Below, piece after piece: positions 8 to 22,518 of a stretch of DNA of 64,000 bases. Position numbers and translations under genes: made by a program. The DNA is from a virus (lineage: Duplodnaviria; Caudoviricetes): positions 1 through 64,000 of the IMG/VR virus record IMGVR_UViG_3300048629_000034; one strand, 5' to 3'. Numbering within the stretch: position 1 is the first letter of the stretch; each line of letters starts with the position of its first letter. The notes beneath the pieces were generated by a model. The model was not told the origin of the DNA. It made no database searches and saw only the letters and a list, made by a program, of their open reading frames with translations.

Positions 8-2023
8 TTAGCATCCATCCGAGAAATTTTTATCATTGTCTATATTTTCAAGCAATCTTGCTGAAGCACTATTTATATCAAAAATCATTTGTTCTATATT
101 TTTATTGTGTTCTTCTATATTGTCGTTTTTTATATATTCATTTCTTAGGTTCATCAATATGCTTGGGAATGCTGTTTTCCAGTATCCATTATCCTGATTG
201 TGAGTTATTTTGTTAGGATAAGTATCTACCAGTAATTTCTTGATGTCGTTATTTTGCTCAACTGAGGCTTTTATTAGTTCTGTCATAAGCTTGTATGAAT
301 TATCTTTGTCTGTGCCTTTTTTCCCTGCTATTTTTATACCAGCAGACTTGTTGTATTTACTATATATGTCACTATCGAATTTACCACTCTTTAATGTTTG
401 ATATGCATGCTCCACACTATAGTATTTTTTACCGTTATACATAAATTCTCTTTTAGCCAAATTACTCAATTGACTATTCTCATTAGAACCATACCATATA
501 TTTATAATGCTTGTATCAATGCCTTCCATATGATCTGTATACAGAACCAATGCTTGCAGATGACTGTATTTATCATTTCTTCCTGTACCACGATATGATA
601 CTGTTTCATCTATAATTGCATTACCGTTATCATCCTTAGGCATGACTTCTGTTATATTCTTACCGATATGCTGTCTTTTTTTATCAAGTATTTTATATTT
701 CTCATCAGTTTGACTTGGTATTATGCCCTTATATTTTCCATTCTCTATGAACTCTTTTGAGCTTTTATCGCTCATCAACCAGTTGTAGAATATCTCAGTA
801 GCCATACCGTTGTCTTTTGTGTTTATTTTTATGTATGGTAACTTTGTTAAATTAGCTTGTATGTTTTTACCCAGCGCCAAAGCAAATGGGTTGCTATAGT
901 TATATGGCTTGCCTCTACCTTCATTTGATGCTCTTTGTGCTACAATCTCATTCTTCCAGAACTTACTGCTATTATCCATATCATCAAATGCTCCACTGAA
1001 GTCGATTTTACCTAGTTTTTCCAGTAGTTCAGTATCAGGCTTAATTTCTTTTTTTATGTCAGTTTTATAATAATCAGCAAACAGTTTATGTATTTTATCG
1101 GATACTTTGTCTATTGTCTCTTGATCATAATGTGGCGCTGGTACCCATTCGTTAGTTTCTTCATCTTTGTTGTCGTATATTTCGAGTTTTCTAGCACCAA
1201 TTCCAGCAAATTTCATACCTTTGGTTATTTTAACTTTATCGTCTTTTGTTTGCTCAAACTTTCTTTTATTGTAATTGAATTTGTACCAGCTAAGGTCTGT
1301 AGGATTAAGCACGTATATGTCTCTATTTGATGCTTTTGCAATTTCTATAGCAGTATTGGTTCCTCCAGAGCCACTTGTTTTGTCGTCAGTTAGCTCTGAT
1401 ATTGCAAATATTGTATCTGATTTTCTTACTTGTGATACATTTCTAACCTGAAGTCTCTGAGGATATGTTGCTTTTGATTGCTCTAGTGGATATTGATTTT
1501 CGAACACATTACTATAGAATTCCACATTTTCTCGATACAGCTCATCAGACATTACAGCTCCGTATTTGCCTTTTAGTAATCCTGCTAAGTAGGATTTATC
1601 TCCTTTGCTATTGCCATATCTTGCAGTTATATGATTATTTTTTATGTCATTACCATACTTAGAGCCAATAATATCGAACAGTGCATCAGCACCTCTCGCA
1701 CCACCACTTGTATTTATTGTAGCATCACTATTCGGAATTTCATCAAATCCATCTATCGTAGACAAATCTAATTTTCCAGATTTTGCAGCTTTACTCAACC
1801 TATCACTATTCTTCTTGTATATTTTAATTTCAGGAGCAGTTGCATTTTCAAGCTCTTTTATTTTATTGATTATCTCACTATAATCTTGACCATTATTCGA
1901 TATTAATTCTTTTGCAATTTGTTTTATGTCGGTTAATTTATTATTTTTTTTATCAGCTTTACTACTAGATATACTATTTAGTATTTCAAGCAGTATATTA
2001 TTTAATTTGTTACATTGTGACAT
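8..2023 (-). CDS. Multidomain protein: SLOG (cpYpsA-like) domain plus C-terminal NADAR domain; probable virion cargo
   Basis: SGGARGAD and GGTNTAIEIA...FAGIGAR match SLOG motifs; NIWYGSNENSQLSNL...YYSVEHAYQ matches NADAR. Lies directly downstream of vRNAP. ATG at 2023 has an AGGAGA SD. Confidence 0.7.
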   Translation of the reverse strand: MSQCNKLNNILLEILNSISSSKADKKNNKLTDIKQIAKELISNNGQDYSEIINKIKELENATAPEIKIYKKNSDRLSKAAKSGKLDLSTIDGFDEIPNSDATINTSGGARGADALFDIIGSKYGNDIKNNHITARYGNSKGDKSYLAGLLKGKYGAVMSDELYRENVEFYSNVFENQYPLEQSKATYPQRLQVRNVSQVRKSDTIFAISELTDDKTSGSGGTNTAIEIAKASNRDIYVLNPTDLSWYKFNYNKRKFEQTKDDKVKITKGMKFAGIGARKLEIYDNKDEETNEWVPAPHYDQETIDKVSDKIHKLFADYYKTDIKKEIKPDTELLEKLGKIDFSGAFDDMDNSSKFWKNEIVAQRASNEGRGKPYNYSNPFALALGKNIQANLTKLPYIKINTKDNGMATEIFYNWLMSDKSSKEFIENGKYKGIIPSQTDEKYKILDKKRQHIGKNITEVMPKDDNGNAIIDETVSYRGTGRNDKYSHLQALVLYTDHMEGIDTSIINIWYGSNENSQLSNLAKREFMYNGKKYYSVEHAYQTLKSGKFDSDIYSKYNKSAGIKIAGKKGTDKDNSYKLMTELIKASVEQNNDIKKLLVDTYPNKITHNQDNGYWKTAFPSILMNLRNEYIKNDNIEEHNKNIEQMIFDINSASARLLENIDNDKNFSDGC

Positions 2024-2034
2024 CAACTCTCTCC

Positions 2035-5000
2035 TTATTTACAGTTTTCTATTTTTATTTTATCTAATATTACATTCAATGTAGCAAATAATCTCGGTAT
2101 AGTCTTTTTCTTATTTGGTTCAACTAGATCATCTAAGTTGTTTATTTCGTCGATATTATCCAGTTTCTTCTCAGCAAATATACTAGCATCTCGATATGTA
2201 TCTTTTGTACCAGGCAGAGCATCGGCCATGAATGATTTCACATTATCTATTATACTATCAGTGTCTATATTTGATTTATTATCTACATTAGCACTATGCC
2301 CAGCTTCTTTACTGTATACCATTTGATGAACTTCTACTGGCAATTTACTGTATAGCTCAACTCTTTTGTTGTTGATTTTAACTTCTTCCTCCATGTTTTT
2401 AAGCATACTCTCGATGTCAATTGGACCTCTGTCGGTGAAGTTATCGTATTCCACACTAGCAATTATTTGATCTTTTTTCGAAGCATTCTTATTGTCATTG
2501 TTTAATTCACTGACTATATCGTCAAACCCATTATTGTTGGCAAATTCTATTGATTCTTGTAATGATTTCAGTGCAGAATCATATATGTTCCATTTATTGT
2601 TTAATTCATAGAATAATTTATTATACCTTTTAGCTATTTCATCCATAGTGTATGGATTGGCTACTAATGCATCAAATACTTGTTTTACATCGAACCCTTC
2701 CATTATCATACTCATTATTGCTCCATCTAGTGTATGAATCGGCAGTACACCACCAGCACTTCCTGATGCAGTTACAGTTTTTCTAACTACTGCTGATTTA
2801 GTTGATTTTATGTCTTTAGTTTCACCATCAGCACCAGTTATTGTTAGCTCGTCTTTCAGAGCTACAGTTACCGACTTTCTTTTTGTTTTATCATTTGAAT
2901 TTTGGAATATACCAACTCCATCTTTTTTGCTTGAACTTAATGGAGTTTTCATAGCAGGATAAGCCTCAATCATTGATTCTCTGATTTTAGTCATATCCTC
3001 TATAGTAAGCATCTCAACTGACTTATCGTTAGCTTTAGCAAACTCTTCTTTTTTCTTATCTAGTACTTTATTATATATCATTACTGATATCTTCATAGCA
3101 TTGTTTATATTATTATTTGCCTTATGGAAGTGAGAGTGGCTCTCTTTTAATATATCAGCAGCAGCCATACCGTATGTATTCGAGAATATATCTCTAATCG
3201 CCGTACCTATGCTACCTGTGTAATCAACTCCATCCTGTACTGATTTAGCTTGGACCATGATTGCTTCTGAACCTTTATATTCAAGTATATATGCAATTTT
3301 TCTCATATTTGAACTTGATGTAGTAACCTCTAGCTCTACATCTTTGTTTTCTTTTTTTCTGTTTGTATTTATTTGTTTAACTATATCATCTATAGTAGTT
3401 AATCCAATTGTCATAGGAGATGACTCATACATACTATCTGGTATTAATTCTTTGATTATTTTCCATTCCATTACATCTTCTTCAGCGATGTTGTCAGTAC
3501 CCATTACTTTTTTTGTGAATGTATTTAGGAACTCTTTACTTAGGTCATTACCTATCCCAATTGCTATTGACTTGCTTCCTGAACCATATGCATCTTTCAT
3601 CAGTGGGAATTTCATGATATCTCTACCATCTTTTGTAACCACTAATGTACCACCATTATCTTCAACGAATTCAAACTCATATCCGGACTTAAGCAGATGT
3701 TGCGCATACACAGATGCCTTTATTATTGAACTAGCCTTTTTACTCTTTGAATCAGCCTCTTCTCTCTCTCGTGTTTGTTCTAGTATCTTGGTTAAACGAC
3801 CCAATAATTTGGCTAAGTCCTCGTATAAGTCATCCATTGTGCTGAACATGTCGTTTGGTGACTTATCTCCGATTGAATCTTGCGGATAGTAGAATACACC
3901 AGTCTTTTTTGATTTACTGATTTGTGTATCGTAATTTGGGAACGGTATTTGCATAATCTTGAATGCTGGACCATTTGTCTTTCCATCTGATTCTACAGTT
4001 AGTGTTGTCTTGACTGACTTATTACCGTCTTTTCTTGCTTTATCTATTTTAATTAGCGTATCTAATGCAAGTTCCGTTTGACCTATGAACTCATAGTGCA
4101 GCGATATCTCTTTACCGTTGACTGTAATTTCAATTGAATCTTTAGCATCTGGATCTAGTATATAGTCATTAACTATTTGTTGTAATTTTGCCACATCAGT
4201 TTTTAGTATTTCGTCAGCAAATACATTAATCTCTTCGTCGGTTTTTCCTTCGAATTTCATACCAAATGATTGTGCTATTGCTTTTTTGAATCCTAATCTG
4301 TAGTTACCTATTTCAATCTCATACTCATCATCTGACTTATTGAACAGGAATCTAGAGAAGTGCTTATCTCCTTGATAATCTCCAACTCCTGGGTCCGTCA
4401 TTGTTCTACCACTCTTAGCTAGGAAGTAGTCAAGCATTATCTCTCTGTGAGCTTTTGGATCTGAATCTATCCTATCATAGTGTTCCAGTAATGTATCTAT
4501 ATTATCATCTATCGACCTATTTAGTCCTTTTTGAGCTTCTATCATGTCGAACATCGTATGTTCTTTTTTTAACTCATCTATATCTTTCCAGCCAAGCAAT
4601 CTCTTGTATTTTAGTACTTTCTTTTCTCTCTTCTCAGAACCAATCTTACCGAACATCTTACCTATTAATTCTGTATTCATAGTAAGTACTCTGTTCTCTT
4701 CGGTAACAATTGCATCAGTGTTAGTTTTTGAACCAATATTTAACGGATTATTTCTAACTTTAACTCTATAGTCTTCGTCGTGTTTCTTCGTTCTGGTTCT
4801 TGGATAGTTAGTTATTGAATCATCTGATATTTCATCTGCTATTGCGTTTAATTCTTCTTTGCTCTCATTGATTGTTGCGATGTGTAACTTTTGACCACTA
4901 TTTTTTATTGAACTATCGTACTCTATGAATTTATTATGCAGTTTAACCATTGGTGTAGTTGTTTTTTCGTCTGTACCATTTAGCTCTAAAAACTCAACCA

Positions 5001-8000
5001 TCTTTTGTTTTTCTAGGTATAGTAGTGCAGCCATACCTAATCCTGCAGCATATTGTTCATACACTCCGTCAACTCCACTATCCTTTGGTTTTAATCCAAG
5101 TTGATTAATTATTGCTCTACCAATCGTGTCAGCTACATATACTCTAGGGATACCTTTGTTTGCATACTCTGTTAAGTGAGCTGGAGTTATATCATCTTCA
5201 CTTATATTTAGGAATGTAGACAGTTTATTTGAGTCCATACTAATCCAAGTTGAGCTTGACCTATTGAATGCAGATAATGCTTCTATCGAAATTGCTAATG
5301 CAACATTATCATTAACTGGAGCATTATTTTTAGCTTCCGAGAAGTCATACATTAATTGCAGCGATGGATTATTAATTACATGCATTGTACCTTTTTTGTC
5401 TTCTGTTCTTATGTCTCTATTTAGTAGTCCATCAAATATATTATGTATATCCTTTTCTTCGTAGAATTTAACTAGCTCAGGAAACTCTTCTTTGATCATA
5501 TCGTGTTCGTTTTCAAATTTATCACTAAATGCATATGTAGCAAATACTGTATGCTTACCGTCTTTTATATCGAACACTTCATTTGGTCTCAGGTGCTTGT
5601 TTTTATCAGACAACCTGTTTGTGTTAATTATATTGTGTATGCTTAATATCTCTTTATCTTTTATTATCTCTAATCTTGAATCTCTGAGTTTATCTGCCTT
5701 ATTTCTTAGCTTAGCTTCTCTTTTTGGAACTACATTATTGGTTCTGGTAACTAATTGCTGTTGTTTATCATTTAATTCTTTTTGTTTTGCATCGTATTTT
5801 TCATTTAACCTAACTCTTATATTACTAAGCACGCCATCTATTAATTTTTTGATTTTCTCACCATCAGACTCTATGTTTCCAGCTATTATTAGTAGCTCTC
5901 TTGCTATTGAGCTAATACTATTTATCGGCTCATTTTCTCCAGTGTCTTTTATGTATTTAAGCAGTGTAGTTTTTATTTTGTTAGCAACAGCAGATCCGTC
6001 TGTCTTTGATTTCTTTATATTATTTAATTCTTGTAGTAATTTGAATAGTTGTCTGTTATCTGCATCCAATTCCTCTATTTCTTGGTTTAGCTCGTCCATG
6101 TTGTCTTTATTTTTTGAACCAATTCTAGCCGCATCTCTTCTTAGTAGCTTACCAATTAATTCATTTACATATTCTTCTCGCTTCTTTGCTTTCTCTTTTA
6201 GCTTGTTATAGCTTATTGTTATTCTACCAATAAGACCTTTATTTGATTTAATTTTCTTGTATGTATCTTTTATATCTGCATTTATCTTATCTAACTTATC
6301 TTTTTGGCCAGCTCTATAATCTGAGTTTTCCTTTTTTGTCTGAATCTCTTTGTAGCCTTTTATTTCTTTTAATCCGCGACTACTGATCTTTTCTAGTATC
6401 AGCTTCTTTCTGTCGTTTTGGTATATATCTTTAGTAGTATAACCATGTTCATCAGCAAGTTCTTTTATTTGTTTACCATTGTTTTTAGCAAATTCGCTCA
6501 GCTTTGCAGTTGCTTCACGATAATCAATCATATCTGAACTATATTGCTCATCTGTGTATTTGTCGTTGCTTGAGCCAGCTTCTAGCTTATCTAGTGCAGA
6601 ATTAATATTATCTTTGATTTCATCTAATCTAGTTTTTGTATCTGGCTCCGATTGTTCTTCATCAGCTTGGTCCTCAATCTCATTATTATCATTTTTGTCT
6701 GGATTTTCTTGTTTTGGTTTAGGCTCCACTGTTTGTTCATCGAACGGAACAGCAGCAAGCTCTCCATTCATCGTTCGTTCTATTTCATCTTTACTTGATT
6801 GCTGTTGTGCAATTGGTTCTGATTGATTATTTGCATTAGTATCAGTTTTGTCTTTATTTATATGCTCAAATGCAGTACCATTGCTATGATTTATATTTGC
6901 AATTTCGCTCATCATTTTAGCTACATCACTAGTGTTATTTGCATCCAAGTCTGTCATCAGAGCATTAAGTATCATATCATCTCTGTTGATTGCATTTATT
7001 GTTGTATTAACTCCAGTAGGTAAATACAGTTTATCTTTTTGTGCATTATCAATTTTGTCACTATTAGCTATTGCTGTATTTAGTAGTGATCTTATTTGGT
7101 CTTGTGGATTAATTGTAAATATAGCACTTTCGCCATCTGCACTTACTTTCTTAGCGGGCTTTTTAGTGTTAGACATTGGAGCAGCATATCTTTTTTCAAT
7201 ATCTTTTAGTGGGTATTTACCGCCCTTTATATCTGCTTTTAATTCAGCAGGTATCTGATATTCATCCTTGCTTAGCTTAGCATCGCTGTCGCCAGTTATT
7301 TTAGTGTATAATTCATTCCATTTTTTATAGGAACTAACTACATTACCACTTGTACCATCTTCCAGAAATTTTACATAATTGATTATTTGTTTTATTCTGG
7401 TATTCTTATTAGTGCTGAACCCATAATTATTCAAGTGTGCTTTATTATTTTCAATCATACCCTCAACTGCTTTGTTTAACACACCTGATTTTAAGCTTAG
7501 ATGGTGGCTGTATTCATTTAGTCTACTCTCTAGCTTATCTACTACTTTTTCTAGGCTCTTTGTATTTTTGCTTTCAGTCTTTAATTTAGCTATCTTCTTC
7601 AGTTGATTAACCACACCATCTTTCCCTAGGAATATCTCACTCGATACCTTTTCATGTAATGGAACATCTAACGAACTATCATCTTTGATCATGTCTCTTA
7701 GATTACTATTTATTGATTGAATACTATCTATGTTGTCTACATATTTATGTATCACTTGCTTATCTTCAGCAGGTATTGATTTGTCAGCATTTAATGCTTC
7801 TAACAATTTGCTTATCTTTTGTCCATTTAACGCATCGTTAGCAGACTCATCATTACCGAATGCATATGCGAGTGTATTTATATAATCAGCAGTTGAACCA
7901 CGACTCTCTCCTTCTGCATACATAGTCTCGTTAGTCATATTGTCATATTTGTCTGCATAGTGTTTGTCTATTGTATCCTGCATATACTGTTTAGCTTTAT

Positions 8001-10314
8001 CTACTTTTCTTTGTAGTTGAGTATTCTTATCTGACAGTATCTCATTATCTTCTTGATTATCCATATCTTTTTCGAACTCATCAAGTATAGCTTGAGCTGT
8101 TTTTACGTCTCCATTCGCCATTAGTCCGTCGAATCCAGGAATATATATGTTATCTATATTTGAACCAATTATTCTCTCATTGTTCATCAATTCTATCTCG
8201 GCAGTAGTTTCTTCTGGAGTCATATCTTTGGTTCTATTTGCTATGTACTTGGCTTCTTTTCTTTTATCGTACTTGGTCTTAGCTATCGAACCAATATCTT
8301 TTGCCACATGTAATCCAGCTCCAGGCACTGCACCTAATGCACCTGACCCTAATCCCATGAATGCTCCAGCACTTGCTTTGGTTCTAGTATCTTCACCCAT
8401 AGCTTCTTCTAGTCCAACTTGACCTATCATATTACCATCTAAATCAGTTTTGTTTGTACCATACACTCTGTTGAATGCATCTACGAACGATTGAGTATAT
8501 TCTTGACCGAACTCAGCTAGTCCAGCTGTTGCTAATTTAGTTCCTGCTTGACCTAGTGAACCAATGAATTTAGCAGCAGCATTTTTATCTTTGAATGCAT
8601 TCATTAATCTTGTAGCTGATTCCCTAGTCGGCAGACCTTTAATCGTATATTGTAGCGATGCTTTTTCTAGTAGTGCTGCAGGTAGGTTCAGTGCGAACAT
8701 TCCAGCTACTTTGCCTAGTGAGGCCATCTCTCCACCATTAGCCGCAACTACATCATCCAATTGATCGTTAGTCCATGTAGTTGCCATACCAATTTCGTTT
8801 GCATGATTCGCTATGAATAACTTAGCCTTGTCTTTCATTGGCAATGCTTTCATCATCTCAGCTGATTTAGCTAACTCTGCTTTAGCTGCATCACCTTTTA
8901 GTTTCTTTTTAGCTATTGTTTTTTGAGCTTTAGCTGTTTCTTCTAGTGCATCTCCAAGTAGACCCTTGAATCCTTTTTTAACTAGTTTACCAACTACTGC
9001 TGCTCCTGAAGTAGCTAACCAACCCAAACTGTATACGAATTGATCTGCGGAATCTGTAACTTTGTCTAGCATATCTAGTGCTACTTCGCCGTTACCTTTT
9101 TTGAATAACTTTCCATATGTACTTGGATGCATAGCTTCTACACCATCAGTAAGTTTACTGTATAGTCTATCTACATCAGCAGCTATATTTTGTTGTCTGG
9201 CTACATCTTGACCAACTACACTTTGTACGAACAATTGTCTATCTTTCTCCGACATTATGTCCCATTTGTCCATAGCATCAGCAGCATCTTTGAATCCGAA
9301 TGCATTTAGTGTTCTAGCACCTGCATTACCTATTAATTCAACCACCGAGTCTGCTTCACTTGTTAATCTATCTAATCCACCAGCTGTGAATTGTTTAATT
9401 ATATTTGATGGAGCCAATGAATCCCATAAGGTACTACCACCTTCTTTTGTGAATACCATATCTTTGATGTCTTTTTTTCTAGCAACTCCACCTAAGTTGT
9501 AATCAGCCACATCGTCAGATTCCATTATATTTGGATTGTATTCTTCGGTGTATCCTCTTTTTGCTCCCATCAATTTGTGCAGATAATCACCATTGTCGTA
9601 TGTTCTATTACCTAGTGCTACATCGGAACCATGTATAGTAGCCTCAGCAGTTACTGTATCATTGTATGGTTTTAATATCGCCATACCTACATCACCTAAT
9701 TTTCTTGGAGTATATCCTGCACCTGTAGTTGGTTTACCATTCCAGTTATATGTATCTAGTACATCTGAGTCTGCACCTTGACCGTATGTATGTCTAGCCA
9801 TCCCCATTTTAGTTGAACCATCATTAGCTAATCCTTGATACAGTGTACTTGCTTTACCATTGTATGGTTTTTGTTTCCATTGACCATCTTCGTAGTAGTG
9901 ATGGATATATTGGTTCTGTACACCAGTTTCAGTTAAGTAATCATCGGCTTGGTCACTTATGTATTTTGCCATTTGGGCAGGAGTTTGCAATGCATGATTT
10001 CTGATTTTATTTGCATTTGAGTAGAACTTGCCATCCTCGACAAATCCAGTATTCTTTTGCAATGGTATTGGATTATTAGTTATACTTCCATTAGTAGTAT
10101 TTTGATTTATTCTTCCGTCTATGCTTGCTTGATTTAGTGCATTGAACTGTGAGTTTTGACCCAACTTCTTAGTCAATCCTTGTAGCTTCTGCTGAGCTTT
10201 ATTGTCTAATTGTTGTTCTAGTGTTGGTTCTTGAGTCTGTCCGTATAGGTACTTCTCTGCATCTTGTGTTGATATATTTTGGCTGTATGCCAGGTATTCT
10301 GCATCTGTTAACAT
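2035..10314 (-). CDS. Virion-encapsidated RNA polymerase (N4 gp50-like), 2759 aa
   Basis: Motif A TVESDGKTNGP, motif B RDIMKFPLMKDAYGSG, IHTLDGAIM and motif C KQVFDA resemble N4 mini-vRNAP. Giant size and a single Cys. Confidence 0.93.
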   Translation of the reverse strand: MLTDAEYLAYSQNISTQDAEKYLYGQTQEPTLEQQLDNKAQQKLQGLTKKLGQNSQFNALNQASIDGRINQNTTNGSITNNPIPLQKNTGFVEDGKFYSNANKIRNHALQTPAQMAKYISDQADDYLTETGVQNQYIHHYYEDGQWKQKPYNGKASTLYQGLANDGSTKMGMARHTYGQGADSDVLDTYNWNGKPTTGAGYTPRKLGDVGMAILKPYNDTVTAEATIHGSDVALGNRTYDNGDYLHKLMGAKRGYTEEYNPNIMESDDVADYNLGGVARKKDIKDMVFTKEGGSTLWDSLAPSNIIKQFTAGGLDRLTSEADSVVELIGNAGARTLNAFGFKDAADAMDKWDIMSEKDRQLFVQSVVGQDVARQQNIAADVDRLYSKLTDGVEAMHPSTYGKLFKKGNGEVALDMLDKVTDSADQFVYSLGWLATSGAAVVGKLVKKGFKGLLGDALEETAKAQKTIAKKKLKGDAAKAELAKSAEMMKALPMKDKAKLFIANHANEIGMATTWTNDQLDDVVAANGGEMASLGKVAGMFALNLPAALLEKASLQYTIKGLPTRESATRLMNAFKDKNAAAKFIGSLGQAGTKLATAGLAEFGQEYTQSFVDAFNRVYGTNKTDLDGNMIGQVGLEEAMGEDTRTKASAGAFMGLGSGALGAVPGAGLHVAKDIGSIAKTKYDKRKEAKYIANRTKDMTPEETTAEIELMNNERIIGSNIDNIYIPGFDGLMANGDVKTAQAILDEFEKDMDNQEDNEILSDKNTQLQRKVDKAKQYMQDTIDKHYADKYDNMTNETMYAEGESRGSTADYINTLAYAFGNDESANDALNGQKISKLLEALNADKSIPAEDKQVIHKYVDNIDSIQSINSNLRDMIKDDSSLDVPLHEKVSSEIFLGKDGVVNQLKKIAKLKTESKNTKSLEKVVDKLESRLNEYSHHLSLKSGVLNKAVEGMIENNKAHLNNYGFSTNKNTRIKQIINYVKFLEDGTSGNVVSSYKKWNELYTKITGDSDAKLSKDEYQIPAELKADIKGGKYPLKDIEKRYAAPMSNTKKPAKKVSADGESAIFTINPQDQIRSLLNTAIANSDKIDNAQKDKLYLPTGVNTTINAINRDDMILNALMTDLDANNTSDVAKMMSEIANINHSNGTAFEHINKDKTDTNANNQSEPIAQQQSSKDEIERTMNGELAAVPFDEQTVEPKPKQENPDKNDNNEIEDQADEEQSEPDTKTRLDEIKDNINSALDKLEAGSSNDKYTDEQYSSDMIDYREATAKLSEFAKNNGKQIKELADEHGYTTKDIYQNDRKKLILEKISSRGLKEIKGYKEIQTKKENSDYRAGQKDKLDKINADIKDTYKKIKSNKGLIGRITISYNKLKEKAKKREEYVNELIGKLLRRDAARIGSKNKDNMDELNQEIEELDADNRQLFKLLQELNNIKKSKTDGSAVANKIKTTLLKYIKDTGENEPINSISSIARELLIIAGNIESDGEKIKKLIDGVLSNIRVRLNEKYDAKQKELNDKQQQLVTRTNNVVPKREAKLRNKADKLRDSRLEIIKDKEILSIHNIINTNRLSDKNKHLRPNEVFDIKDGKHTVFATYAFSDKFENEHDMIKEEFPELVKFYEEKDIHNIFDGLLNRDIRTEDKKGTMHVINNPSLQLMYDFSEAKNNAPVNDNVALAISIEALSAFNRSSSTWISMDSNKLSTFLNISEDDITPAHLTEYANKGIPRVYVADTIGRAIINQLGLKPKDSGVDGVYEQYAAGLGMAALLYLEKQKMVEFLELNGTDEKTTTPMVKLHNKFIEYDSSIKNSGQKLHIATINESKEELNAIADEISDDSITNYPRTRTKKHDEDYRVKVRNNPLNIGSKTNTDAIVTEENRVLTMNTELIGKMFGKIGSEKREKKVLKYKRLLGWKDIDELKKEHTMFDMIEAQKGLNRSIDDNIDTLLEHYDRIDSDPKAHREIMLDYFLAKSGRTMTDPGVGDYQGDKHFSRFLFNKSDDEYEIEIGNYRLGFKKAIAQSFGMKFEGKTDEEINVFADEILKTDVAKLQQIVNDYILDPDAKDSIEITVNGKEISLHYEFIGQTELALDTLIKIDKARKDGNKSVKTTLTVESDGKTNGPAFKIMQIPFPNYDTQISKSKKTGVFYYPQDSIGDKSPNDMFSTMDDLYEDLAKLLGRLTKILEQTREREEADSKSKKASSIIKASVYAQHLLKSGYEFEFVEDNGGTLVVTKDGRDIMKFPLMKDAYGSGSKSIAIGIGNDLSKEFLNTFTKKVMGTDNIAEEDVMEWKIIKELIPDSMYESSPMTIGLTTIDDIVKQINTNRKKENKDVELEVTTSSSNMRKIAYILEYKGSEAIMVQAKSVQDGVDYTGSIGTAIRDIFSNTYGMAAADILKESHSHFHKANNNINNAMKISVMIYNKVLDKKKEEFAKANDKSVEMLTIEDMTKIRESMIEAYPAMKTPLSSSKKDGVGIFQNSNDKTKRKSVTVALKDELTITGADGETKDIKSTKSAVVRKTVTASGSAGGVLPIHTLDGAIMSMIMEGFDVKQVFDALVANPYTMDEIAKRYNKLFYELNNKWNIYDSALKSLQESIEFANNNGFDDIVSELNNDNKNASKKDQIIASVEYDNFTDRGPIDIESMLKNMEEEVKINNKRVELYSKLPVEVHQMVYSKEAGHSANVDNKSNIDTDSIIDNVKSFMADALPGTKDTYRDASIFAEKKLDNIDEINNLDDLVEPNKKKTIPRLFATLNVILDKIKIENCK

Positions 10315-10395: not shown

Positions 10396-12285
10396 TTAAT
10401 GTCGTTGAAGACCATACCAAACGTCTTTAATTCCATTGTATGAATCACCTATTAGTTTTAAGTCTTTTTGCCACTGATTTCCAGGATTACCATATGGAGC
10501 TACGGAATTTTTTAATGACTCAGCAGTATTTTGGTCTACTCCAAATCCTTGTATCATAGCTTTCAGTTCTCTCATTTGTCTATTCTTTGAGTCTTGCGAA
10601 TCTTGATTGTGCTTTAATTTTAATGCATTTCTATATATTCTATTCTTTTCCTTGCTGCTAGTGTCTTTGTTTGAGTACTTGGCTAATTCTTTTTCTGACA
10701 AGTATTCTGCAACAATCTTAGTTTTTTCTAGCTTTTGGATTTTTTTTACTGCATCTTCGTTTCCAGTTTCAGGATCCGATCGAATTGATTCTATTTTATT
10801 GTTGATAAAATCAATAGTGTCATTCTTGTTGGTCTCACTTGTGCCACCAACTACATTAACCTCATTACTATTGGACGTGCCTTTAAGTGAATTGAATACA
10901 CTAGGCAATGGATCTGTTTTAGCAACTTGGTTATTGTTGTTGAAATCAATTTTATAAAGGTATTGAAGATAATCTGCTTTTGGTATCTGATAGCCTTCGC
11001 TATCACTACTTTTAGCCTTAGTCTTCTGTTTGCCCTCATTTAGCTTGTCCATTAGTTTTTTTAAAGCATCAGCTTTTTGTTGTGTCATAATGCTTTTTGT
11101 ATCTGAACCAATGCCATTATCTAACTTGAATTGTTTGGTTAGTTCTTTTATTTGTTTTATGTATTTTGATGGTGATCCAAGCGATGATGCTGATGAGCTA
11201 CTACTTGTTTTATTTTCATATGCAGAGGCAGCATCTTGCAGTAATTCCATTTTTCTGTTATCAGATACATTTAGTTGTAGTATATTTTCTACTAGTTTAG
11301 TAGATACCTTGCCAGATATGATTTCATTTAGAGTTTTGTTATCTTTGTTTTTAGCATTTAGTAGACCTATTGAGTCTTTTAGCTTGTCATTTATAAAGCT
11401 ATACGACCATCCTTCTCCAACTAGCCCTGCTATTACCTTAGGATCCATGCTGTATATACCAGTAAACATAGTCTTTTTGCTTCTGCCTGATTTGCTTCCA
11501 GATGGGCCTGACGACGAATTGTCTTTTTTCGCTTCCAGCTTAGCCAGCTGTTTTAATACATCAAGTTCTGCATCAAACTCTGCCTTGTTTGCTTTCCATT
11601 TAGCAGTTCTTGTATAAGTTGAACCAGTACTACTTGCAGGATACAGGGAGTCAACTAATTTTAATTGGTTTGTTATATCACTAGCTTTTATACCTTTGAT
11701 TTTAGACAACCTGTCGTGAAGTATTTTCTTGTAGTTTTGTGGATTGTATACTATATCTGCATAATCTTCTTTATACAGATCCATAGCACCTTTATTCGCT
11801 TTATCTTGAACTTTCCAATCAGCGTATCCTTGTTTTTGAGCAAGTTTATTTTGCTTGGAAATAAATGCATTATTGATTTTGTCTGAATCATATGAACCAT
11901 CTTCATTTAATCCAACAGACAGTATATTCTTGTCAACCCAGCCTGAACTTACAGAACCATCTTGAGCCTGCACAACATCTTGACCAAATGTATTTTGATT
12001 TATTTGTTTTAGCAGTTGGTTCTCTAAGTCATTCTTTGGAGTATCAATTGCTGCCTGATTGATAGCATCTTGTTTGTCCCATTCCGCTTGCTGTCTAGCT
12101 TGTAGTTTCTGTTGCCAGCTATCAGCTTTTGCTTGTCTAGCAGCTTGTCTTTTTCTTTCCTGCTCAAGCAGGTCAAGCTCTTTGTTTTTTAAGCTTTGTG
12201 ATTGAATATTAGCTAATGCATCTCTTATTCCTTTGGTAGCATCATCAACTGACACTTTACCAAAGTTCATTGTGTATCCTGACAT
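10396..12285 (-). CDS. Probable ejection/internal virion protein (N4 gp51 position)
   Basis: Synteny upstream of vRNAP, no Cys, Q/K/S-rich coiled regions. Confidence 0.55.
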   Translation of the reverse strand: MSGYTMNFGKVSVDDATKGIRDALANIQSQSLKNKELDLLEQERKRQAARQAKADSWQQKLQARQQAEWDKQDAINQAAIDTPKNDLENQLLKQINQNTFGQDVVQAQDGSVSSGWVDKNILSVGLNEDGSYDSDKINNAFISKQNKLAQKQGYADWKVQDKANKGAMDLYKEDYADIVYNPQNYKKILHDRLSKIKGIKASDITNQLKLVDSLYPASSTGSTYTRTAKWKANKAEFDAELDVLKQLAKLEAKKDNSSSGPSGSKSGRSKKTMFTGIYSMDPKVIAGLVGEGWSYSFINDKLKDSIGLLNAKNKDNKTLNEIISGKVSTKLVENILQLNVSDNRKMELLQDAASAYENKTSSSSSASSLGSPSKYIKQIKELTKQFKLDNGIGSDTKSIMTQQKADALKKLMDKLNEGKQKTKAKSSDSEGYQIPKADYLQYLYKIDFNNNNQVAKTDPLPSVFNSLKGTSNSNEVNVVGGTSETNKNDTIDFINNKIESIRSDPETGNEDAVKKIQKLEKTKIVAEYLSEKELAKYSNKDTSSKEKNRIYRNALKLKHNQDSQDSKNRQMRELKAMIQGFGVDQNTAESLKNSVAPYGNPGNQWQKDLKLIGDSYNGIKDVWYGLQRH

Positions 12286-12294
12286 AGTGTTCCC

Positions 12295-12765
12295 TTATAA
12301 TGTTTTGTAGGCTTTTAATCCAAGTATCTTTGTTGGTTTATTTCCATGAGCATTAAATACAGCAAGCGTGTTATCTCTAGCTATTTGTGCATTTTGATTG
12401 TTTTTTAGTTGCTGTCTTCCAAGTTCCATATTTAATTTATTGGCAGCATGCTTGTCTCTGTAGTTTAAGTGTCCCATACCTAAATTAGCTAGAGATATAC
12501 CAAGTCCACCCCAGCCTTTAGTAGCATCGAATGATTGTAAACCAGTAGCACTTTCTATAAGTTTACCTTCGTCATTATATTTCTCTGGGTTACCCCATAA
12601 ATCTTTAAGCCAGTTGTTTTCTGTAGTATTGAAATCTATATCTTGAGTGTTTATTGGTACAGAATAGCTTCTGACAATAGATGATAAACCATATTTATCT
12701 TTGTCGTCATTTTTATAGTTAATATAATCTTCTAGGCTTCCCATATTTGTATTCCTTATAGTCAT
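12295..12765 (-). CDS. Small ejection/structural protein (N4 gp52-like)
   Basis: Size, synteny and the Gly-rich segment GWGGLGISLANLGMG. Confidence 0.6.
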   Translation of the reverse strand: MTIRNTNMGSLEDYINYKNDDKDKYGLSSIVRSYSVPINTQDIDFNTTENNWLKDLWGNPEKYNDEGKLIESATGLQSFDATKGWGGLGISLANLGMGHLNYRDKHAANKLNMELGRQQLKNNQNAQIARDNTLAVFNAHGNKPTKILGLKAYKTL

Positions 12766-16329: not shown

Positions 16330-19300
16330 TTACACCATGTTATTCACTGAAATAACACCTTGGGTACAGTAAGGTTCTGCAGAGCTATCATCATAATCCT
16401 TACCAATAGTCCTGAAGAATAACGGAGCTCCTCTAATAACTCCACGTAATCCACCGATACCTGAGTAAGAAGAGTCGCTAGCATTTGGATCCCTTGAGAC
16501 TTTAATTTCGTTAAAAAAGTATAAATACCCATTATTCTCCTCCCTAATAGTCGTAAGAGTTATAGTGAACCCGTTAGAAGTAGTAGACGCAGTTGTGGTA
16601 CCCCATCCACTGTTACCAATAGCAGATATACCGTTAGCCCCCAATGTGTAATGAACATAACCATTTACATTAGAAGCTGAGCTAGATATAAATGTTGTAG
16701 TAATAGTATTGATTAAAGTATTACCTAGATATATATCTAGGTAGGAAGTACCAGTTAGATACTCGGTCACCCCAGAGTATGGATGAATAGTAAATACAAT
16801 ATCATCCACCTCTAAATACGGATCAGTACCTTTTACTAACTTATTGGTGCTAAGCGTAGCATAATCTGAGTATGAGTATAAAGGTACGTTAAATACTTCA
16901 GCACCTACTGGTACACTATACAAGTTAATATAGTCATAAGAAGTGTCATGGATAAATGAAGGTCTATGAGTATAAGAAGGTATTGAAAATGAACTTACAC
17001 TAGGTATCCTATATTCATCAGTACCACTTATATAAACAGCAGCAGGCATAGTAGTAGAGTTGTAGTCGGAAACAGGTATATGGTAGTTAGTAAGCACTTC
17101 TAGTTCTCCATCTAAGTCTAAGTAACTAGCTTTAATAACAGCTCCCTCAATGTAACTACCTATTAGCCTTTTACCAGTCAACTCGGTAGCGCTTATAGTC
17201 TCAGCAACTAGCCCAGTAGTATTGATTCTGTCAGCTAATATTGTCCCTGTAGTTATTTTACTTCCGTTTATTGTAGTAGTGTTATTGTTAATAGCATCTG
17301 CTACTTCTTCAGGACGTACGTAAGGGCTAAGGTCTATACTACTAACTTGACTATCCACATAATCAACATCAGCCAATATACCAGTAACAGTATCAGATGT
17401 CATAATTGCTATCTTCATTTGTGATATAGTACACACTCCAGTCCAACCTAATACGAACCAATCAGTAGTACTATTTAGTAGTATATCCTCTACTGTACCT
17501 ACTTGTGTAAGTGTATCAGCCTCTCTAATTATACCAAATGAACTATTTGTACTTGTGTTAGGTTGTATTAATCCTTCTACTATATACCATTTGTCATTAA
17601 CTAATGTAGCATTATGAGGTATAGCAGTTGTAGTGTATGTATCTCCATCTATTTGAATTACACTCATAGTATAATCTGTACCTGGTTTGATTGCAAACTT
17701 ATAATAGTAACTACTGTACATATCTTCGATGTAAGGTGAGTACACTTCATCAGAACTGCTAGGTAGTGCTATCTGAGGCTCTGCAAACGCATCAGCACCA
17801 ACTGATACTGAAGACACTGGATTACCTATGAATTGATATCCTGCATTGTCATCACTACCTATAAGACTGGTAGTAGGGATTAAGTTATCAGTTATATTGA
17901 TGTTCCTGTCTTTAAAAGACACAGTATTTACTGTAGATGAGATTGCTTCATCTATTGTTCCCAGCTGATTATTACCGAATGTAACTTTACCGTTAAATAG
18001 TGTCTCTCCGTTTCTTATACTAAATGTAGGTGTGCTATTCGTTCCATCTGAGTCACTAGTAAATTTAAACTTATCAGCATTGATCCAGAACTCACTATCG
18101 TAGCTTGGATTATTACCACCTTCTCCTCTAATTGCCTCAGACGTTAATCCAAATCCGCTTTTGTATGTGTGACCGTCGAGTGTGATATTAGAGCCATACT
18201 TGAAGTTAGTCTCAACCTTATCAGCAGTAACTTTTATTGTGTCCATTAATACTGAGTTACCACCAAGTGCTCCACCTATGTCAGCAGCTATTTTACCAGC
18301 ATCTTTATACTCTGGAATCCATCTATCAGTATTGTTAGGGACTTCATCACCATCTTTTGGGTACGGATCAGTAACTTTTATTACTACGTTGGGTTCAACT
18401 GTATCATCAATTATATTGTCAACTGGTTCGCTATATAGTGCATTTCCATCAGTATCACGTTCTTGCACATAGGTATTCACACCGTCAACTATTTCTTCTT
18501 TTAGTATTGGCATAACCATTCCGTCTGGAAATAAGTATGCTTCTTGATTTTGTATTTGTTCACTAACGGCTATCATTCCTTCAGTCTTCCAGTCATCATT
18601 CCATGACGATTCTTCACTATCCCATATAGTAGTAATCAGTATGCCATCAGTATTATTATGTATCCACATATCACCGTCATTCATAGTGTTTATGGTGCTT
18701 GGATCAGATTCTTGTCTATATACAGTAAGCTTACCGTCAGCAGTGTATTGTGATTCAGCTGCCTTTATGTATCCCTGAGCAAGTGCACCTTCTTGTAATT
18801 GCCAGTTTGTACCATCATACCTGTATGCTTTATAGTTATTTGGATCCAATGTATTAACATACCAATCTCCACTATTTGCATTAGAAGGAGCTGTGTTTGT
18901 ATATGAAATGTTGGTAACAGAGTTATCATTACCAACATAGCCTTCTAAATTTATTATATCAGTAGCTAATGAATTATCTCTTATAAGAGACCAATCAGTT
19001 ACTACGCTTGGAGAGTCTTTCAGTGCTCTATATGGAGTATTATCACTACCATAGTACAGTATGTCCCCTTCACGAGCATCACTAATAGCATATGTGCTTA
19101 AATACCAACTAGATATCTTACCATCGGCAACAGCTTCAGCATCTTTAGCAGCTTTATAAGCTTTTGCTACAGAGTTATCACTCTCAACCCAAGTAGTACC
19201 ATCAAATCTGTAAGCCACGACTGTGTACTCAGCAGGGTTAGTATCTGCTACAACAGAGTGTGTATTTATCCACCAATCTCCGATATCGTAGTCAGTGTCT

Positions 19301-22300
19301 GTTGTGCTAGGAGCTACAGTACTGTACGTAGCATTTATAACCCCATCAGCAGTACCTTGCGCAGCTAAGGCTGCACTTTGGGCTACAGCTATACCAGTAA
19401 CAAGTGAGCTGTTAGATATAGAGTTCCAATTAGATTCTATAGCTAATTCTGAAGTATTTATTTCAATCTTCGCAACATATAAGTCAGTAACTGTTTCTCC
19501 GTTAACAGTAGTACTTTTTACTAGTATATCCCCTTTCCTAGCTGTTACCACCTCTGCGAAGGTACTAGCGTAAAACGTAGTAACCTTACCATCAGCTGCT
19601 GCTTGCGAATTGATAGCTTGAACGTAAGCTTGACCTACCGTGTTTGTAGTATTAACAACCCAAGCCAATACACCGTTAACTAACTCATATCTCTTAACAG
19701 AAGGAGATAATAGAGTAGTATCTATCCACCAATCCCCTTCAGAAGGGCTGGTCGGTTCAGTATCTGAGTAGTATGCATCTACCTTGCCATCTAAAGTCCC
19801 TAAATCACTCTTAACAGTAGATATCCTTGTTAAAAGGTCTGTGTCTTGAGATAACTCCCACCCGTTGGTGGTATCATACACGTAGGTTGTTCCATCATCT
19901 AATGTAGTAGAGCCTCTTATAATAAGTACGTCTCCATCATGCACATCATTAGGCACTGTGATATCATCTTGGTAGTAAAACCTAGTACTATCATCTCCAG
20001 CTTTTTTAGCCTTAGTGAAAGCATCAGCTATTGCATTATTAGTCTGAGTCCAAGTATACGTACTAGGACTTACAGAGTTATCAATAGCTGTACATTTATA
20101 AGCAGTAGCTACTCCACCTCTAGAGTCATCATTAAATATATACCAATCCCCTAGGTTACCAACTACAGATCCAGTAGGTGCTACTGTAGCATAAGTAGCA
20201 TCCACTATACCGTCTGCAGTGCTTTGAGCTTGATTAGCTAGTAAAGCTGCTTCAGCTATAGAGGTGTCTTGAACTTCTACCCACTGAGTATTTGAGAACT
20301 GATACCTCCACAACTTGTTACCGTTATTTGTATCAATCCATAAGTCACCATCATTGCTCTCAACCATACCTTCAGGCTCATTATCTTGATAATGTGTGAC
20401 AATCTTACTATCGGCAGTACCTTGAGCAGTCACAATAGCTCTATCCTGAACACTGTGCCAACTCTTAGTGGTTCCATCTGAGTCAAGCATGTACATATAC
20501 TGAGAATTATCGGTACTATCAATAAGTAAATCTCCTAGTACTAGAGGTACATCAGCAGTACCTGTAACAGTACTAGTAGTACCAAAGTACGTACTTATCT
20601 TAGTAGTAGCTAAGGTTACACCTGAATTAGCCACTTCCTGTACATCAGCTAACCTAGAGAGAAGATTAACATCCTCTATAGGAGTGTAGGTCTTCACAGT
20701 TAATCCATTAACATCTTGTGTGACACTTATACGATGTTGGGTACCAATACCATAAACTAAGTTAGTTACTGGGTCAGTGTACTCCGCAGTAAGTGTTACT
20801 ATGTCTCCATCATCACCAGGTAAGGAGTTAAGAGTATCCAGATAGAACATTTGAAGCTTACCATCAGCAGTAGCTTCTGCTGTCCTAGCAGCTATGTAAG
20901 CATCAGCTATAGCGTTGCTTTTTTCGTGCCAGTTACCAGTAGTTGTGGAGGCTGTAGTACTATCATCATACATATATGCTGTAGCAGTATAGTCATGCTT
21001 ATAGATGTACCAGTCACCATTACTTCCAGTAACGTTCGCAGTTGGTGCTACATCATAGTAATTGGCTTCTATAATACCATCTGCAGTATATTGAGCAATA
21101 TCAGCAGCAGATTGTGCAGTAGCTATAGCAGTAGTAAGTGATGTATTAATTATCTTACTCCAGTAAGCTTCTATAGGTGTAGTGTCTGTAGCTGGTGTTA
21201 TAACTAGCGTGAACTGCTCACCTGAGAAGTGTTCAATGCCATTACCGTCAGTGTAATCTGCAGTAAGTACTAGTAAATCTCCATTCTCAGCTAAGCTATC
21301 AATAATAAAATCATCTTGATAGTATATAGTCATCTTTCTATCTGCCATAGTCTGGGCTTTGATAGCTTCAGCGTACGCATTAGCAGCAGTAGTATCTGTT
21401 ATTAGGTACCATCCGAAACCATCAACATCTACTTTGCCATCAACAGTATCCGATCCATAAAGGAACTTCCAACTAGCTATATACTCATTAATATCATTTA
21501 CAACTTTATATTGAATATAAGTATCTCCAGTATGTTTATTACGCTCTGCAATTGAGTTTGTTGCTAGGTCCGAATTGTACCAAGTAGCGTACGGTTCTGT
21601 TGGTGACGGTCTTCCAACATAATCACCATCAGGCAAACTTTCAGCATCTAGCACGGGTGAATCAGTGCCTGAGAATATATCAATCTTACCGTCAATTTGA
21701 TTTTGAAATAACTCTAGCTGCTGTGCTATACCAGACATTGCAATACCACTATCTGTTGGGTCATAACCTACAAATGTATTTATATCATTAATGTATCCAG
21801 CAGAACCAATAGACAACCCATCATTAGTGAATAGTTTAGCATTTAGTGTAGTAATTCTTTCAGCTTGCACTGATGTTTCGGAAGCCAATGCTGTATCAAC
21901 CTCTTGCAATGTAGCTACATTATCATTAAATACCGACTGTATCGTACTGATATTACTAGCTGTGGTAAATTGATTGTTAGCTATTGTATTCTTCAAGTCA
22001 GTAACTAGTGAATTAATTCTACCACCATCTATCTGGCTGTTGATATGTTGCAGAACCAACGTAGATGCTTCCTCTGGAGTGGCTTTTGTTTGTTCTAGTT
22101 TGATTATATTAGCAGCAACATTCATCAGTGTGGAATTCAGTGTTTCTAATTTTCGTACGACTATGCCATCGATTGTCTCTTCGCTCATTATTGATTCAGT
22201 GTATGTATTTCTAGCTAACTCTGCTTCTAATAATGAGGCATTAATTGCATTCATTGCTAACTTTAAGTCACCAAGTGTCCGTGCACTAGCTAATTCAGCT

Positions 22301-22518
22301 ATACTATTAATTGAGTCTAGCAACCATTGTGGTGTGGCACTACCTGAACCATGTAGGAATATATCATCACCAGTTACTATATACTCTTTTTTCTGTATTA
22401 TTACATCTAAGTCTGTTGTAGGTGCTACTTCTATTATGTGATTTGGTTCAGCAGATGCTATTGTATCATTAGTGCTTGTTTCTACTATTACGTTATCTAC
22501 TTCTGTTGCTATACTCAA
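16330..22518 (-). CDS. Large tail fibre/tail tip protein, 2062 aa, with internal modular repeats
   Basis: Recurrent A(Q/E)xTADG(K/I)...Y and GDxW(I/Y) modules; DUF1983-like SGFGL...EFWINADKF segment; INGSKITTGTI. Confidence 0.7.
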   Translation of the reverse strand: MSIATEVDNVIVETSTNDTIASAEPNHIIEVAPTTDLDVIIQKKEYIVTGDDIFLHGSGSATPQWLLDSINSIAELASARTLGDLKLAMNAINASLLEAELARNTYTESIMSEETIDGIVVRKLETLNSTLMNVAANIIKLEQTKATPEEASTLVLQHINSQIDGGRINSLVTDLKNTIANNQFTTASNISTIQSVFNDNVATLQEVDTALASETSVQAERITTLNAKLFTNDGLSIGSAGYINDINTFVGYDPTDSGIAMSGIAQQLELFQNQIDGKIDIFSGTDSPVLDAESLPDGDYVGRPSPTEPYATWYNSDLATNSIAERNKHTGDTYIQYKVVNDINEYIASWKFLYGSDTVDGKVDVDGFGWYLITDTTAANAYAEAIKAQTMADRKMTIYYQDDFIIDSLAENGDLLVLTADYTDGNGIEHFSGEQFTLVITPATDTTPIEAYWSKIINTSLTTAIATAQSAADIAQYTADGIIEANYYDVAPTANVTGSNGDWYIYKHDYTATAYMYDDSTTASTTTGNWHEKSNAIADAYIAARTAEATADGKLQMFYLDTLNSLPGDDGDIVTLTAEYTDPVTNLVYGIGTQHRISVTQDVNGLTVKTYTPIEDVNLLSRLADVQEVANSGVTLATTKISTYFGTTSTVTGTADVPLVLGDLLIDSTDNSQYMYMLDSDGTTKSWHSVQDRAIVTAQGTADSKIVTHYQDNEPEGMVESNDGDLWIDTNNGNKLWRYQFSNTQWVEVQDTSIAEAALLANQAQSTADGIVDATYATVAPTGSVVGNLGDWYIFNDDSRGGVATAYKCTAIDNSVSPSTYTWTQTNNAIADAFTKAKKAGDDSTRFYYQDDITVPNDVHDGDVLIIRGSTTLDDGTTYVYDTTNGWELSQDTDLLTRISTVKSDLGTLDGKVDAYYSDTEPTSPSEGDWWIDTTLLSPSVKRYELVNGVLAWVVNTTNTVGQAYVQAINSQAAADGKVTTFYASTFAEVVTARKGDILVKSTTVNGETVTDLYVAKIEINTSELAIESNWNSISNSSLVTGIAVAQSAALAAQGTADGVINATYSTVAPSTTDTDYDIGDWWINTHSVVADTNPAEYTVVAYRFDGTTWVESDNSVAKAYKAAKDAEAVADGKISSWYLSTYAISDAREGDILYYGSDNTPYRALKDSPSVVTDWSLIRDNSLATDIINLEGYVGNDNSVTNISYTNTAPSNANSGDWYVNTLDPNNYKAYRYDGTNWQLQEGALAQGYIKAAESQYTADGKLTVYRQESDPSTINTMNDGDMWIHNNTDGILITTIWDSEESSWNDDWKTEGMIAVSEQIQNQEAYLFPDGMVMPILKEEIVDGVNTYVQERDTDGNALYSEPVDNIIDDTVEPNVVIKVTDPYPKDGDEVPNNTDRWIPEYKDAGKIAADIGGALGGNSVLMDTIKVTADKVETNFKYGSNITLDGHTYKSGFGLTSEAIRGEGGNNPSYDSEFWINADKFKFTSDSDGTNSTPTFSIRNGETLFNGKVTFGNNQLGTIDEAISSTVNTVSFKDRNINITDNLIPTTSLIGSDDNAGYQFIGNPVSSVSVGADAFAEPQIALPSSSDEVYSPYIEDMYSSYYYKFAIKPGTDYTMSVIQIDGDTYTTTAIPHNATLVNDKWYIVEGLIQPNTSTNSSFGIIREADTLTQVGTVEDILLNSTTDWFVLGWTGVCTISQMKIAIMTSDTVTGILADVDYVDSQVSSIDLSPYVRPEEVADAINNNTTTINGSKITTGTILADRINTTGLVAETISATELTGKRLIGSYIEGAVIKASYLDLDGELEVLTNYHIPVSDYNSTTMPAAVYISGTDEYRIPSVSSFSIPSYTHRPSFIHDTSYDYINLYSVPVGAEVFNVPLYSYSDYATLSTNKLVKGTDPYLEVDDIVFTIHPYSGVTEYLTGTSYLDIYLGNTLINTITTTFISSSASNVNGYVHYTLGANGISAIGNSGWGTTTASTTSNGFTITLTTIREENNGYLYFFNEIKVSRDPNASDSSYSGIGGLRGVIRGAPLFFRTIGKDYDDSSAEPYCTQGVISVNNMV

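Follow-up and report, generated by a model that had tools for sequence, protein, structure and literature searches.

Facing terminal cysteines at the breaks of a split N4-type virion RNA polymerase suggest a disulfide-linked ejection chain

Introduction

The virion RNA polymerase (vRNAP) of bacteriophage N4, gp50, is a single chain of 3500 amino acids (aa) without any cysteine (Cys), in agreement with what the first-pass annotation of the DNA studied here had stated. It consists of three folded units (N-terminal domain, polymerase and C-terminal domain) connected by flexible linkers, one of them at residues 2102–2123 (PMC13434306). The gene belongs to an ejection operon of the Schitoviridae (gp50–gp52 in N4, gp71–gp73 in Pseudomonas phage DEV), and the ejection proteins of 191 Schitoviridae are almost Cys-free, which has been explained by their passage through the periplasm (PMC11445570). 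Here we analyse a 64,000-nucleotide (nt) window of viral DNA, bases 1–64,000 of the 113,115-bp IMG/VR virus contig IMGVR_UViG_3300048629_000034 (the left edge of the window is base 1 of the contig), in which an N4-type vRNAP is encoded in pieces by separate genes and the only Cys residues of the chain lie at the termini that face each other. The window phage resembles the N4 and DEV type in its homologous polymerase and C-terminal domains, in gene order and in the two Cys-free proteins encoded upstream of the vRNAP; it differs in genome size (113 kb versus around 70 kb) and in that the one Cys-free chain of around 3400–3500 aa found in N4 and DEV is cut, with an enzyme gene inserted and Cys residues at the new termini.

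A vRNAP in two genes (ORF127/ORF126) has been described for the Alteromonas phages vB_AmaP_AD45-P1 to P4, cultured N4-related podoviruses of 100–104 kb. According to the available text of that report, virions contained both proteins, the stop codon was sequenced a second time, and the authors, who remarked on ‘two cysteins’, concluded that the vRNAP is not injected; that text neither notes that the terminal Cys positions face each other nor proposes a link between them (PMC3821669). In the AltAD45-P1 genome (NC_021532), the large piece has its lone Cys at position 2493 of 2495 (...HCKQ*) and the C-terminal piece has its lone Cys at position 4 (MTIC...). Unlike the window phage, AltAD45 has two pieces and no further gene between them.

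The same signature, a Cys at the C-terminal end of an upstream ejection protein and a Cys at the N-terminal end of the next, occurs in cyanopodophage A4 (Anabaena phage A-4L). This T7-like phage has a 42-kb genome and no virion RNA polymerase, and its proteins showed no sequence similarity to those of the window. There, gp27 (1717 aa) has a lone Cys1715 and gp26 a lone Cys5. Cryo-electron microscopy of the A4 virion resolved a disulfide between these two residues and showed gp27 docking through its C-terminal helix into a cleft of gp26; the bond was treated as a local stabilizer of the pentameric pre-ejectosome and not as a general rule, a means of re-joining a split protein or a way of carrying cargo (PMC12002296). 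A third case is the Crassvirales Cellulophaga phage phi14:2, in which three giant proteins encoded in a row, like those of the window chain, are annotated as virion proteins by tandem mass spectrometry: the last residue of g067 is its lone Cys, g066 (the polymerase) contains Cys only at 3 and at 2179 of 2180, and in g065 the single Cys is at position 3. The phi14:2 polymerase belongs to a different fold class, the two-barrel type instead of the T7 type. A literature search found no paper stating a rule of facing terminal Cys residues, for vRNAPs or in general.

A vRNAP in three genes with four terminal cysteines

The chain of the window phage comprises three genes on the minus strand, with the following elements (window positions unless stated otherwise).

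2035–10314, minus strand: vRNAP piece 1, 2759 aa, N-terminal domain and T7/N4-type polymerase domain (phrog_2206)
2041–2043, minus strand: TGT codon of piece 1 Cys2758, first half of junction 1
2012–2014, minus strand: TGT codon of cargo Cys4, second half of junction 1
8–2023 (from its ATG), minus strand: middle ‘cargo’ protein, 671 aa, with phrog_768 and phrog_1017 matches
11–13, minus strand: TGC codon of cargo Cys671 (last residue), first half of junction 2
Genome 107887–112914 (L003:7887–12914), minus strand: C-domain piece (C-piece), 1675 aa, beginning MNCK..., sole Cys at position 3

Translation of the open reading frames (ORFs) confirmed the observation from which this work started, namely that piece 1 has exactly one Cys, at the penultimate residue (Cys2758, ...IENCK*), and that the next product has exactly two, near its N terminus and as its last residue (Cys4 and Cys671, MSQC... 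...SDGC*). The first-pass annotation had further predicted that the gene beyond the left window edge would encode a protein with an N-terminal Cys and no other, and its 1675-aa product indeed starts MNC and is otherwise Cys-free, so that the junction 2 partner of cargo Cys671 is Cys3 of this C-piece, outside the window. That gene could be read because the two ends of the contig overlap.

1–149, no strand assigned: repeated contig-end stretch, with its copy at 112967–113115

The two copies are 97% identical, with four mismatches, all within the last 30 nt of the 149-nt overlap. The record thus closes on itself: the genome is circular or terminally redundant, and its assembly left an overlap through which the 3′ end of the cargo gene is present twice.

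The Cys pattern is far from what chance would give. Cys makes up 1.11% of the residues in the other ORFs of the genome, corresponding to around 57 Cys in the 5105 aa of the chain, of which four are seen (P of around 7e-20); the chance that four Cys would be placed with one at each of the four facing termini, no more than 4 residues away, is around 9e-12. The three genes lie in different frames, with spacers of 11 and 59 nt, and each has its own ribosome-binding site (that of the cargo, GGAGAGAG, precedes the ATG at 2021–2023), showing that they are separate genes and not one gene with a read-through stop. The operon ends with the 1675-aa ORF, the following gene being on the opposite strand.

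Profile comparisons place the two outer pieces on successive parts of one vRNAP, as the earlier idea of a split polyprotein had required. Residues 1509–2682 of piece 1 match positions 897–1980 of the phrog_2206 ‘virion RNA polymerase’ profile (E-value 4.9e-65), and the C-piece matches positions 2341–3005 of the same profile (E-value 3.5e-121). In N4 gp50 the C-terminal domain comprises residues from around 2124 to 3500, and residues 2442–3384 align with a profile built from the C-piece together with five relatives (hhalign probability 100%, E-value 1e-44); the C-piece profile also matches the solved N4 gp50 chains in the PDB (9pnr and others, E-value 2e-78). A Pfam scan of piece 1 found no family, and the relatives L004, L009 and L010 carry PF21867 (vRNAP_dom_2). 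A motif-C-like FDA lies at residues 2547–2549 of piece 1, 210 aa before its end, close to the roughly 200 aa first estimated; its alignment with IFDGM of N4 (1946), in which motif C alone was compared, is weak (hhalign probability 5%). An N-terminal-domain piece gave no match when searched against the records of five relatives. On these alignments, the vRNAP of the window phage is cut at or near the linker between the polymerase and the C-terminal domain, and the cargo gene, foreign to vRNAPs, is inserted at the cut. In place of the one Cys-free polypeptide of around 3500 aa that characterizes N4-type vRNAPs, there are three genes and four terminal Cys residues. Homology, operon position and Cys depletion together suggest that the pieces are packaged in the virion and ejected.

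Apart from these matches, residues 571–575 of the C-piece form an HExxH motif with a downstream EF (zincin-like), which is invariant in all C-pieces of the split clade and which N4 gp50 lacks at the corresponding position of the alignment. The g065 protein of phi14:2 likewise has a zincin-like HExxH region. This region gave a weak match to the C-piece profile (hhalign probability 43%) and a tblastn match to the vRNAP of the N4-like phage Presley (E-value 3e-4), a hint of a relationship between crAss g065 and the C-domain of N4-type vRNAPs.

The cargo appears to combine two enzyme-like regions. Residues from around 100 to 260 resemble a DprA/SLOG-like Rossmann domain (phrog_768, E-value 1.8e-9, residues 104–259), with motifs SGGAxGxD and GGTNTA that are invariant in three homologues; the Pfam search of the cargo gave no SLOG/DprA (PF02481) match. 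Residues from around 514 to 610 are NADAR-like: the Pfam NADAR score (PF08719) of 17.9 bits is below the cut-off of 35.1, and the call is backed by phrog_1017 (E-value 6.6e-7), by Atlas structural neighbours for residues 494–634 and by the cargo homologue P0156, which passes the cut-off at 59 bits. We therefore call the cargo NADAR-like rather than a proven member of that family. An AlphaFold2 model of the cargo, made from a 3-sequence alignment, had a mean predicted local distance difference test score of 33 and was unusable.

Conservation of the terminal cysteines

The terminal Cys residues are kept in distant homologues of all three chain proteins, a point on which the original idea could have failed. 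A profile search with the C-piece against 1.84 billion cluster representatives gave 2745 matches, of which the best 150 were examined. Among these, 139 are of split size (<1800 aa), and 125 of the 139 have exactly one Cys, at position 3–5. The lone Cys is at position 3 in 90 C-pieces, at position 4 in 29 and at position 5 in 7; these 126 C-pieces, with 170,463 residues, contain 127 Cys in total, 126 of them the N-terminal one. In each of six distant C-piece homologues (29–41% identity), the only Cys is at position 3 or 4. Only three full-length C-pieces appeared to be Cys-free. Two of these are start-codon miscalls whose true starts, MGC and MSTC, directly follow upstream genes ending in ...PCKD* and ...NCRG*, respectively, and the third sits on a frameshifted contig.

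The other two proteins behave in the same manner. Word-indexed searches yielded three homologues of the N-terminal piece (N-piece) and two of the cargo: P0159–P0161 each have a lone, near-terminal, penultimate Cys, as in piece 1, and both cargo homologues (P0156 and P0157) have Cys at their two ends only. When the last 320 aa of nine N-pieces (14–31% identity) were aligned, the near-terminal Cys was the sole invariant column. A search of viral contigs with the cargo protein found no related loci.

Nearly all fused vRNAPs (3100–4400 aa), which have no break, lack Cys; an internal CxxxxC pair occurs in three. Two of the fused proteins, P0130 (3725 aa, Cys at 3471–3476) and P0149 (3496 aa, Cys at 3241–3246), have exactly two Cys, in the conserved context ...NQC-[L/I]-MQGC... 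around 250 aa from the C-terminal end, which looks like the trace left by an earlier split (a stop changed to Leu or Ile, followed by MxxC).

The cysteines follow the break

Gene contexts of the relatives, read from public assemblies, provided around 25 junctions, at which a Cys 0–4 residues from the upstream C-terminal end is followed by a Cys at position 2–5 of the downstream protein. Except for three stray internal Cys, the pieces that bear these junctions contain no other Cys. The systems fall into the following arrangements.

Two-piece systems: L009, L010, L017, G005, AltAD45-P1
Three-piece systems with unrelated cargos: L004, L006, L015, L060
Split at the other domain boundary: L044 (1091 aa ending ...KDC*, then a protein of 2095 aa beginning MAC...)
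Splits at both boundaries: L045, L047, L051

The middle proteins of the relatives are a 434-aa protein of unknown function, a 2110-aa SF1 helicase, an 1883-aa protein of unknown function and a 689-aa NADAR protein, each with Cys at both ends. This variety fits the first-pass suggestion that cargo modules can be plugged into the chain. A comparison of the L004 cargo with that of the window gave an hhalign probability of 6.5%, which does not show homology.

Two further properties define the pattern. First, it has a strict polarity: in the window and in all relatives read, the N-terminal end of the first protein and the C-terminal end of the last never carry a Cys. Second, selection acts on the Cys residue and not on a nucleotide signal at the junction, because the junctions vary in codon (TGT or TGC), stop (TAA or TAG) and spacer (from a 4-nt overlap to 59 nt), and because in G001 the gene for the protein whose lone Cys is C-terminal and that for the protein whose lone Cys is N-terminal are 5.7 kb apart, the former upstream, with three other genes between them. 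The upstream protein of G001 (1515 aa, L055:5087–9634) has its lone Cys at 1514 and the SF1 helicase motifs DEASM, GDxxQLPPV, HKAQGS and YVAxSR; BLASTP shows no similarity to vRNAP N-domains, and on account of its motifs we call it a helicase-bearing partner rather than a proven N-piece.

The L006 cargo (2110 aa) contains PIF1/AAA_30 domains, so that helicases recur as Cys-tipped members of these chains. In L060, where the cargo is clearly a NADAR protein, a NAMPT/NAPRTase NAD-salvage gene lies just past the chain (L060:16897–18711), and the two may share an NAD theme.

A probable disulfide-linked ejection thread

By analogy with the A4 structure, we think it probable that the terminal Cys pairs are head-to-tail interchain disulfides that join the pieces into one ejection thread and are reduced in the host cytoplasm. 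Two bonds, between piece 1 Cys2758 and cargo Cys4 and between cargo Cys671 and C-domain Cys3, would rebuild one linear N-to-C thread of around 5100 residues. They would probably form once packaging or lysis has occurred, between termini already docked to each other, a picture suggested by the A4 docking, and would persist outside the cell and in the oxidizing periplasm; cytoplasmic thioredoxin or glutaredoxin would then reduce them, giving free polymerase, cargo enzyme and C-domain. The cargo would probably be an injected anti-defence or nucleotide-processing enzyme.

Such a thread would account for the main features of the pattern. Because ejection proteins at least partly unfold in the narrow tail, non-covalent docking could not hold the pieces together; because the thread stays linear and unbranched, the link must be end to end; and the other Cys residues would have been purged because wrong cross-links are thereby avoided. 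A need for co-ejection is likelier than a need for co-packaging, because the reducing cytoplasm disfavours a bond before packaging. The flexible linkers of N4 gp50 also fit cuts at those linkers. In AB-type translocated toxins, an interchain disulfide holds the cargo chain to its carrier through a narrow channel until cytosolic thioredoxin reduces it and releases the cargo; these proteins are unrelated to the vRNAP chain, and their two chains result from cleavage of one precursor, whereas those considered here are separate gene products that would be linked end to end.

Several points weigh against a disulfide-linked thread. The one observed case of the bond is A4, an unrelated short-tailed phage and not an N4-like one. 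The host cytoplasm is reducing, and a bond before packaging is probably impossible. The choice of a head-to-tail partner among several copies is left unexplained, and four free Cys per set would allow wrong pairings, with the cargo self-cyclised or piece 1 joined directly to the C-domain. As described in the available text of PMC3821669, denaturing polyacrylamide gel electrophoresis (SDS–PAGE) of AltAD45 gave two separate bands, a result compatible with interchain disulfides only if the gel was reducing. The three stray internal Cys are found in the L006 cargo (1708), the L060 C-piece (1258) and the G005 C-piece (1086), and L046 may be a Cys-less split, although a frameshifted fused gene is an equally good reading of it. 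A search of the genome for an Erv1/ALR sulfhydryl oxidase (PF04777) gave no match, but control genomes were likewise silent, so that this negative carries no weight either way.

Other explanations of the same residues differ in what the Cys would do. If the Cys acted solely in assembly, a transient disulfide or thiol-dependent docking would guide 1:1:1 entry into the procapsid, with no bond in the virion and no ejection force to withstand. Transient cytoplasmic disulfides do have a precedent in phage protein assembly, the P22 tailspike (available text of PMC3357383), and the C-terminal domain of N4 is reportedly required for encapsidation (cited in the accessible part of PMC3821669), so that a split phage would need some means of co-packaging its pieces. 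A purely assembly-related role is nevertheless unlikely, as the equivalent A4 bond exists in the mature virion (PMC12002296) and as both the purge of other Cys and the strict end-to-end link would be left unexplained. Somewhat less probable again is a non-disulfide clasp, in which the facing Cys would not be bonded together but would hold a joint metal ion or each bind a third partner (portal, tail or DNA end). The pairing shows joint action of the ends, to whose chemistry sequence alone is blind, and the C-domain piece does have an invariant metal-binding HExxH motif; yet a stable Zn site would need more than two thiols, the residues around them include no conserved His, Asp or additional Cys (the contexts being NCK, GC, CS, CD, CKQ, MAC, MSC and MxxC), the variable distance of 0–4 residues to the terminus better suits a flexible disulfide, and the single solved case, A4, is a disulfide.

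The pairing could also be a by-product of new termini, each Cys acting independently in acylation or membrane anchoring, as a redox sensor of the cytoplasm or as a processing signal. Cys alone among the residues offers such chemistry and N4-type vRNAP associates with membranes (PMC11445570), but independent roles would not respect polarity, with outer termini that never carry a Cys, and would not place Cys at both ends of every cargo among unrelated folds; we judge this about as improbable as the clasp. Least credible, and already contradicted by the junction data, is the proposal that the Cys codons are a side effect of nucleotide signals at gene junctions, or that the pieces become one protein through read-through, frameshifting or intein-like joining. 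At some junctions an AGGA/AGGT ribosome-binding site is indeed embedded in the ...GC* codons, but codons, stops and spacers vary, both ribosome-binding sites in the window follow the stop, and the G001 genes are 5.7 kb apart. In-frame read-through is not possible where neighbouring frames differ, and, according to the available text of PMC3821669, AltAD45 virions hold two separate polypeptides flanking a stop codon that was re-sequenced. Joining by a split intein or other trans-splicing was considered and rejected: only 0–4 residues lie beyond each Cys and there are no intein blocks (fragments of around 100 and 35 aa would be expected at the junction, with Cys as the first residue of the intein and as the +1 extein residue). 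Most of these alternatives are disfavoured because of the strict polarity and the A4 structure.

A possible coupling device for ejected proteins

Split vRNAPs, the Cys depletion of ejection proteins and one head-to-tail disulfide between ejection proteins were known before. New here are a conserved Cys rule that unites these observations for N4-type polymerases, and a variable cargo slot. The rule bears on a question posed by the 2026 N4 structure paper, how proteins of at least 3500 residues exit through a channel of around 35 Å (PMC13434306): a Cys pair at every chain break implies travel as one unbranched covalent thread, which would constrain models of ejection. It would also overturn the published inference, as it stands in the available text on AltAD45, that the Cys of that polymerase mean no injection (PMC3821669).

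The diversity of the middle proteins suggests that the chain offers a natural slot for enzymes to be co-injected, which is of interest for phage–host conflict and for phage protein delivery; a NADAR-like enzyme could, for example, undo ADP-ribosylation-type defences. More tentatively, and with a likelihood that we place somewhat short of even, terminal Cys pairs may be a general modular coupling device of short-tailed phages, in which a Cys at both ends makes a protein a ‘wagon’ that delivers varied enzymes with or before the DNA, to be freed by cytoplasmic reduction as early effectors, probably in anti-defence. The device would have arisen or spread across N4-like, crAss-like and T7-like phages. 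AltAD45-P1, phi14:2 and A4 are cultured phages that show the signature.

Neighbouring genes of the ejection operon

Upstream of piece 1 lie two ORFs that the first reading had called Cys-free ejection proteins; translation bears out that neither contains a Cys.

10396–12285, minus strand: Cys-free 629-aa ORF just upstream of the vRNAP, in the place of the N4 gp51-type ejection protein
12295–12765, minus strand: Cys-free 156-aa ORF in the place of the small N4 gp52-type ejection protein, assigned by position only

Position and length of the 629-aa ORF fit the Schitoviridae ejection operon of PMC11445570, making it a putative gp51-type protein; it stands outside the Cys chain. The length of the 156-aa ORF fits the class of around 154 aa described in the same work. 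This 156-aa protein (12295–12765, minus strand) matches Pfam Gly_radical at 25.1 bits (cut-off 22.2) without an RVxG-type glycyl-radical motif, and the match is probably spurious. Further upstream of the ejection genes, a tail protein of 2062 aa (16330–22518, minus strand; phrog_23593, E-value 5e-38) has three Cys. The portal of the window phage is 32–34% identical to N4-like portals.

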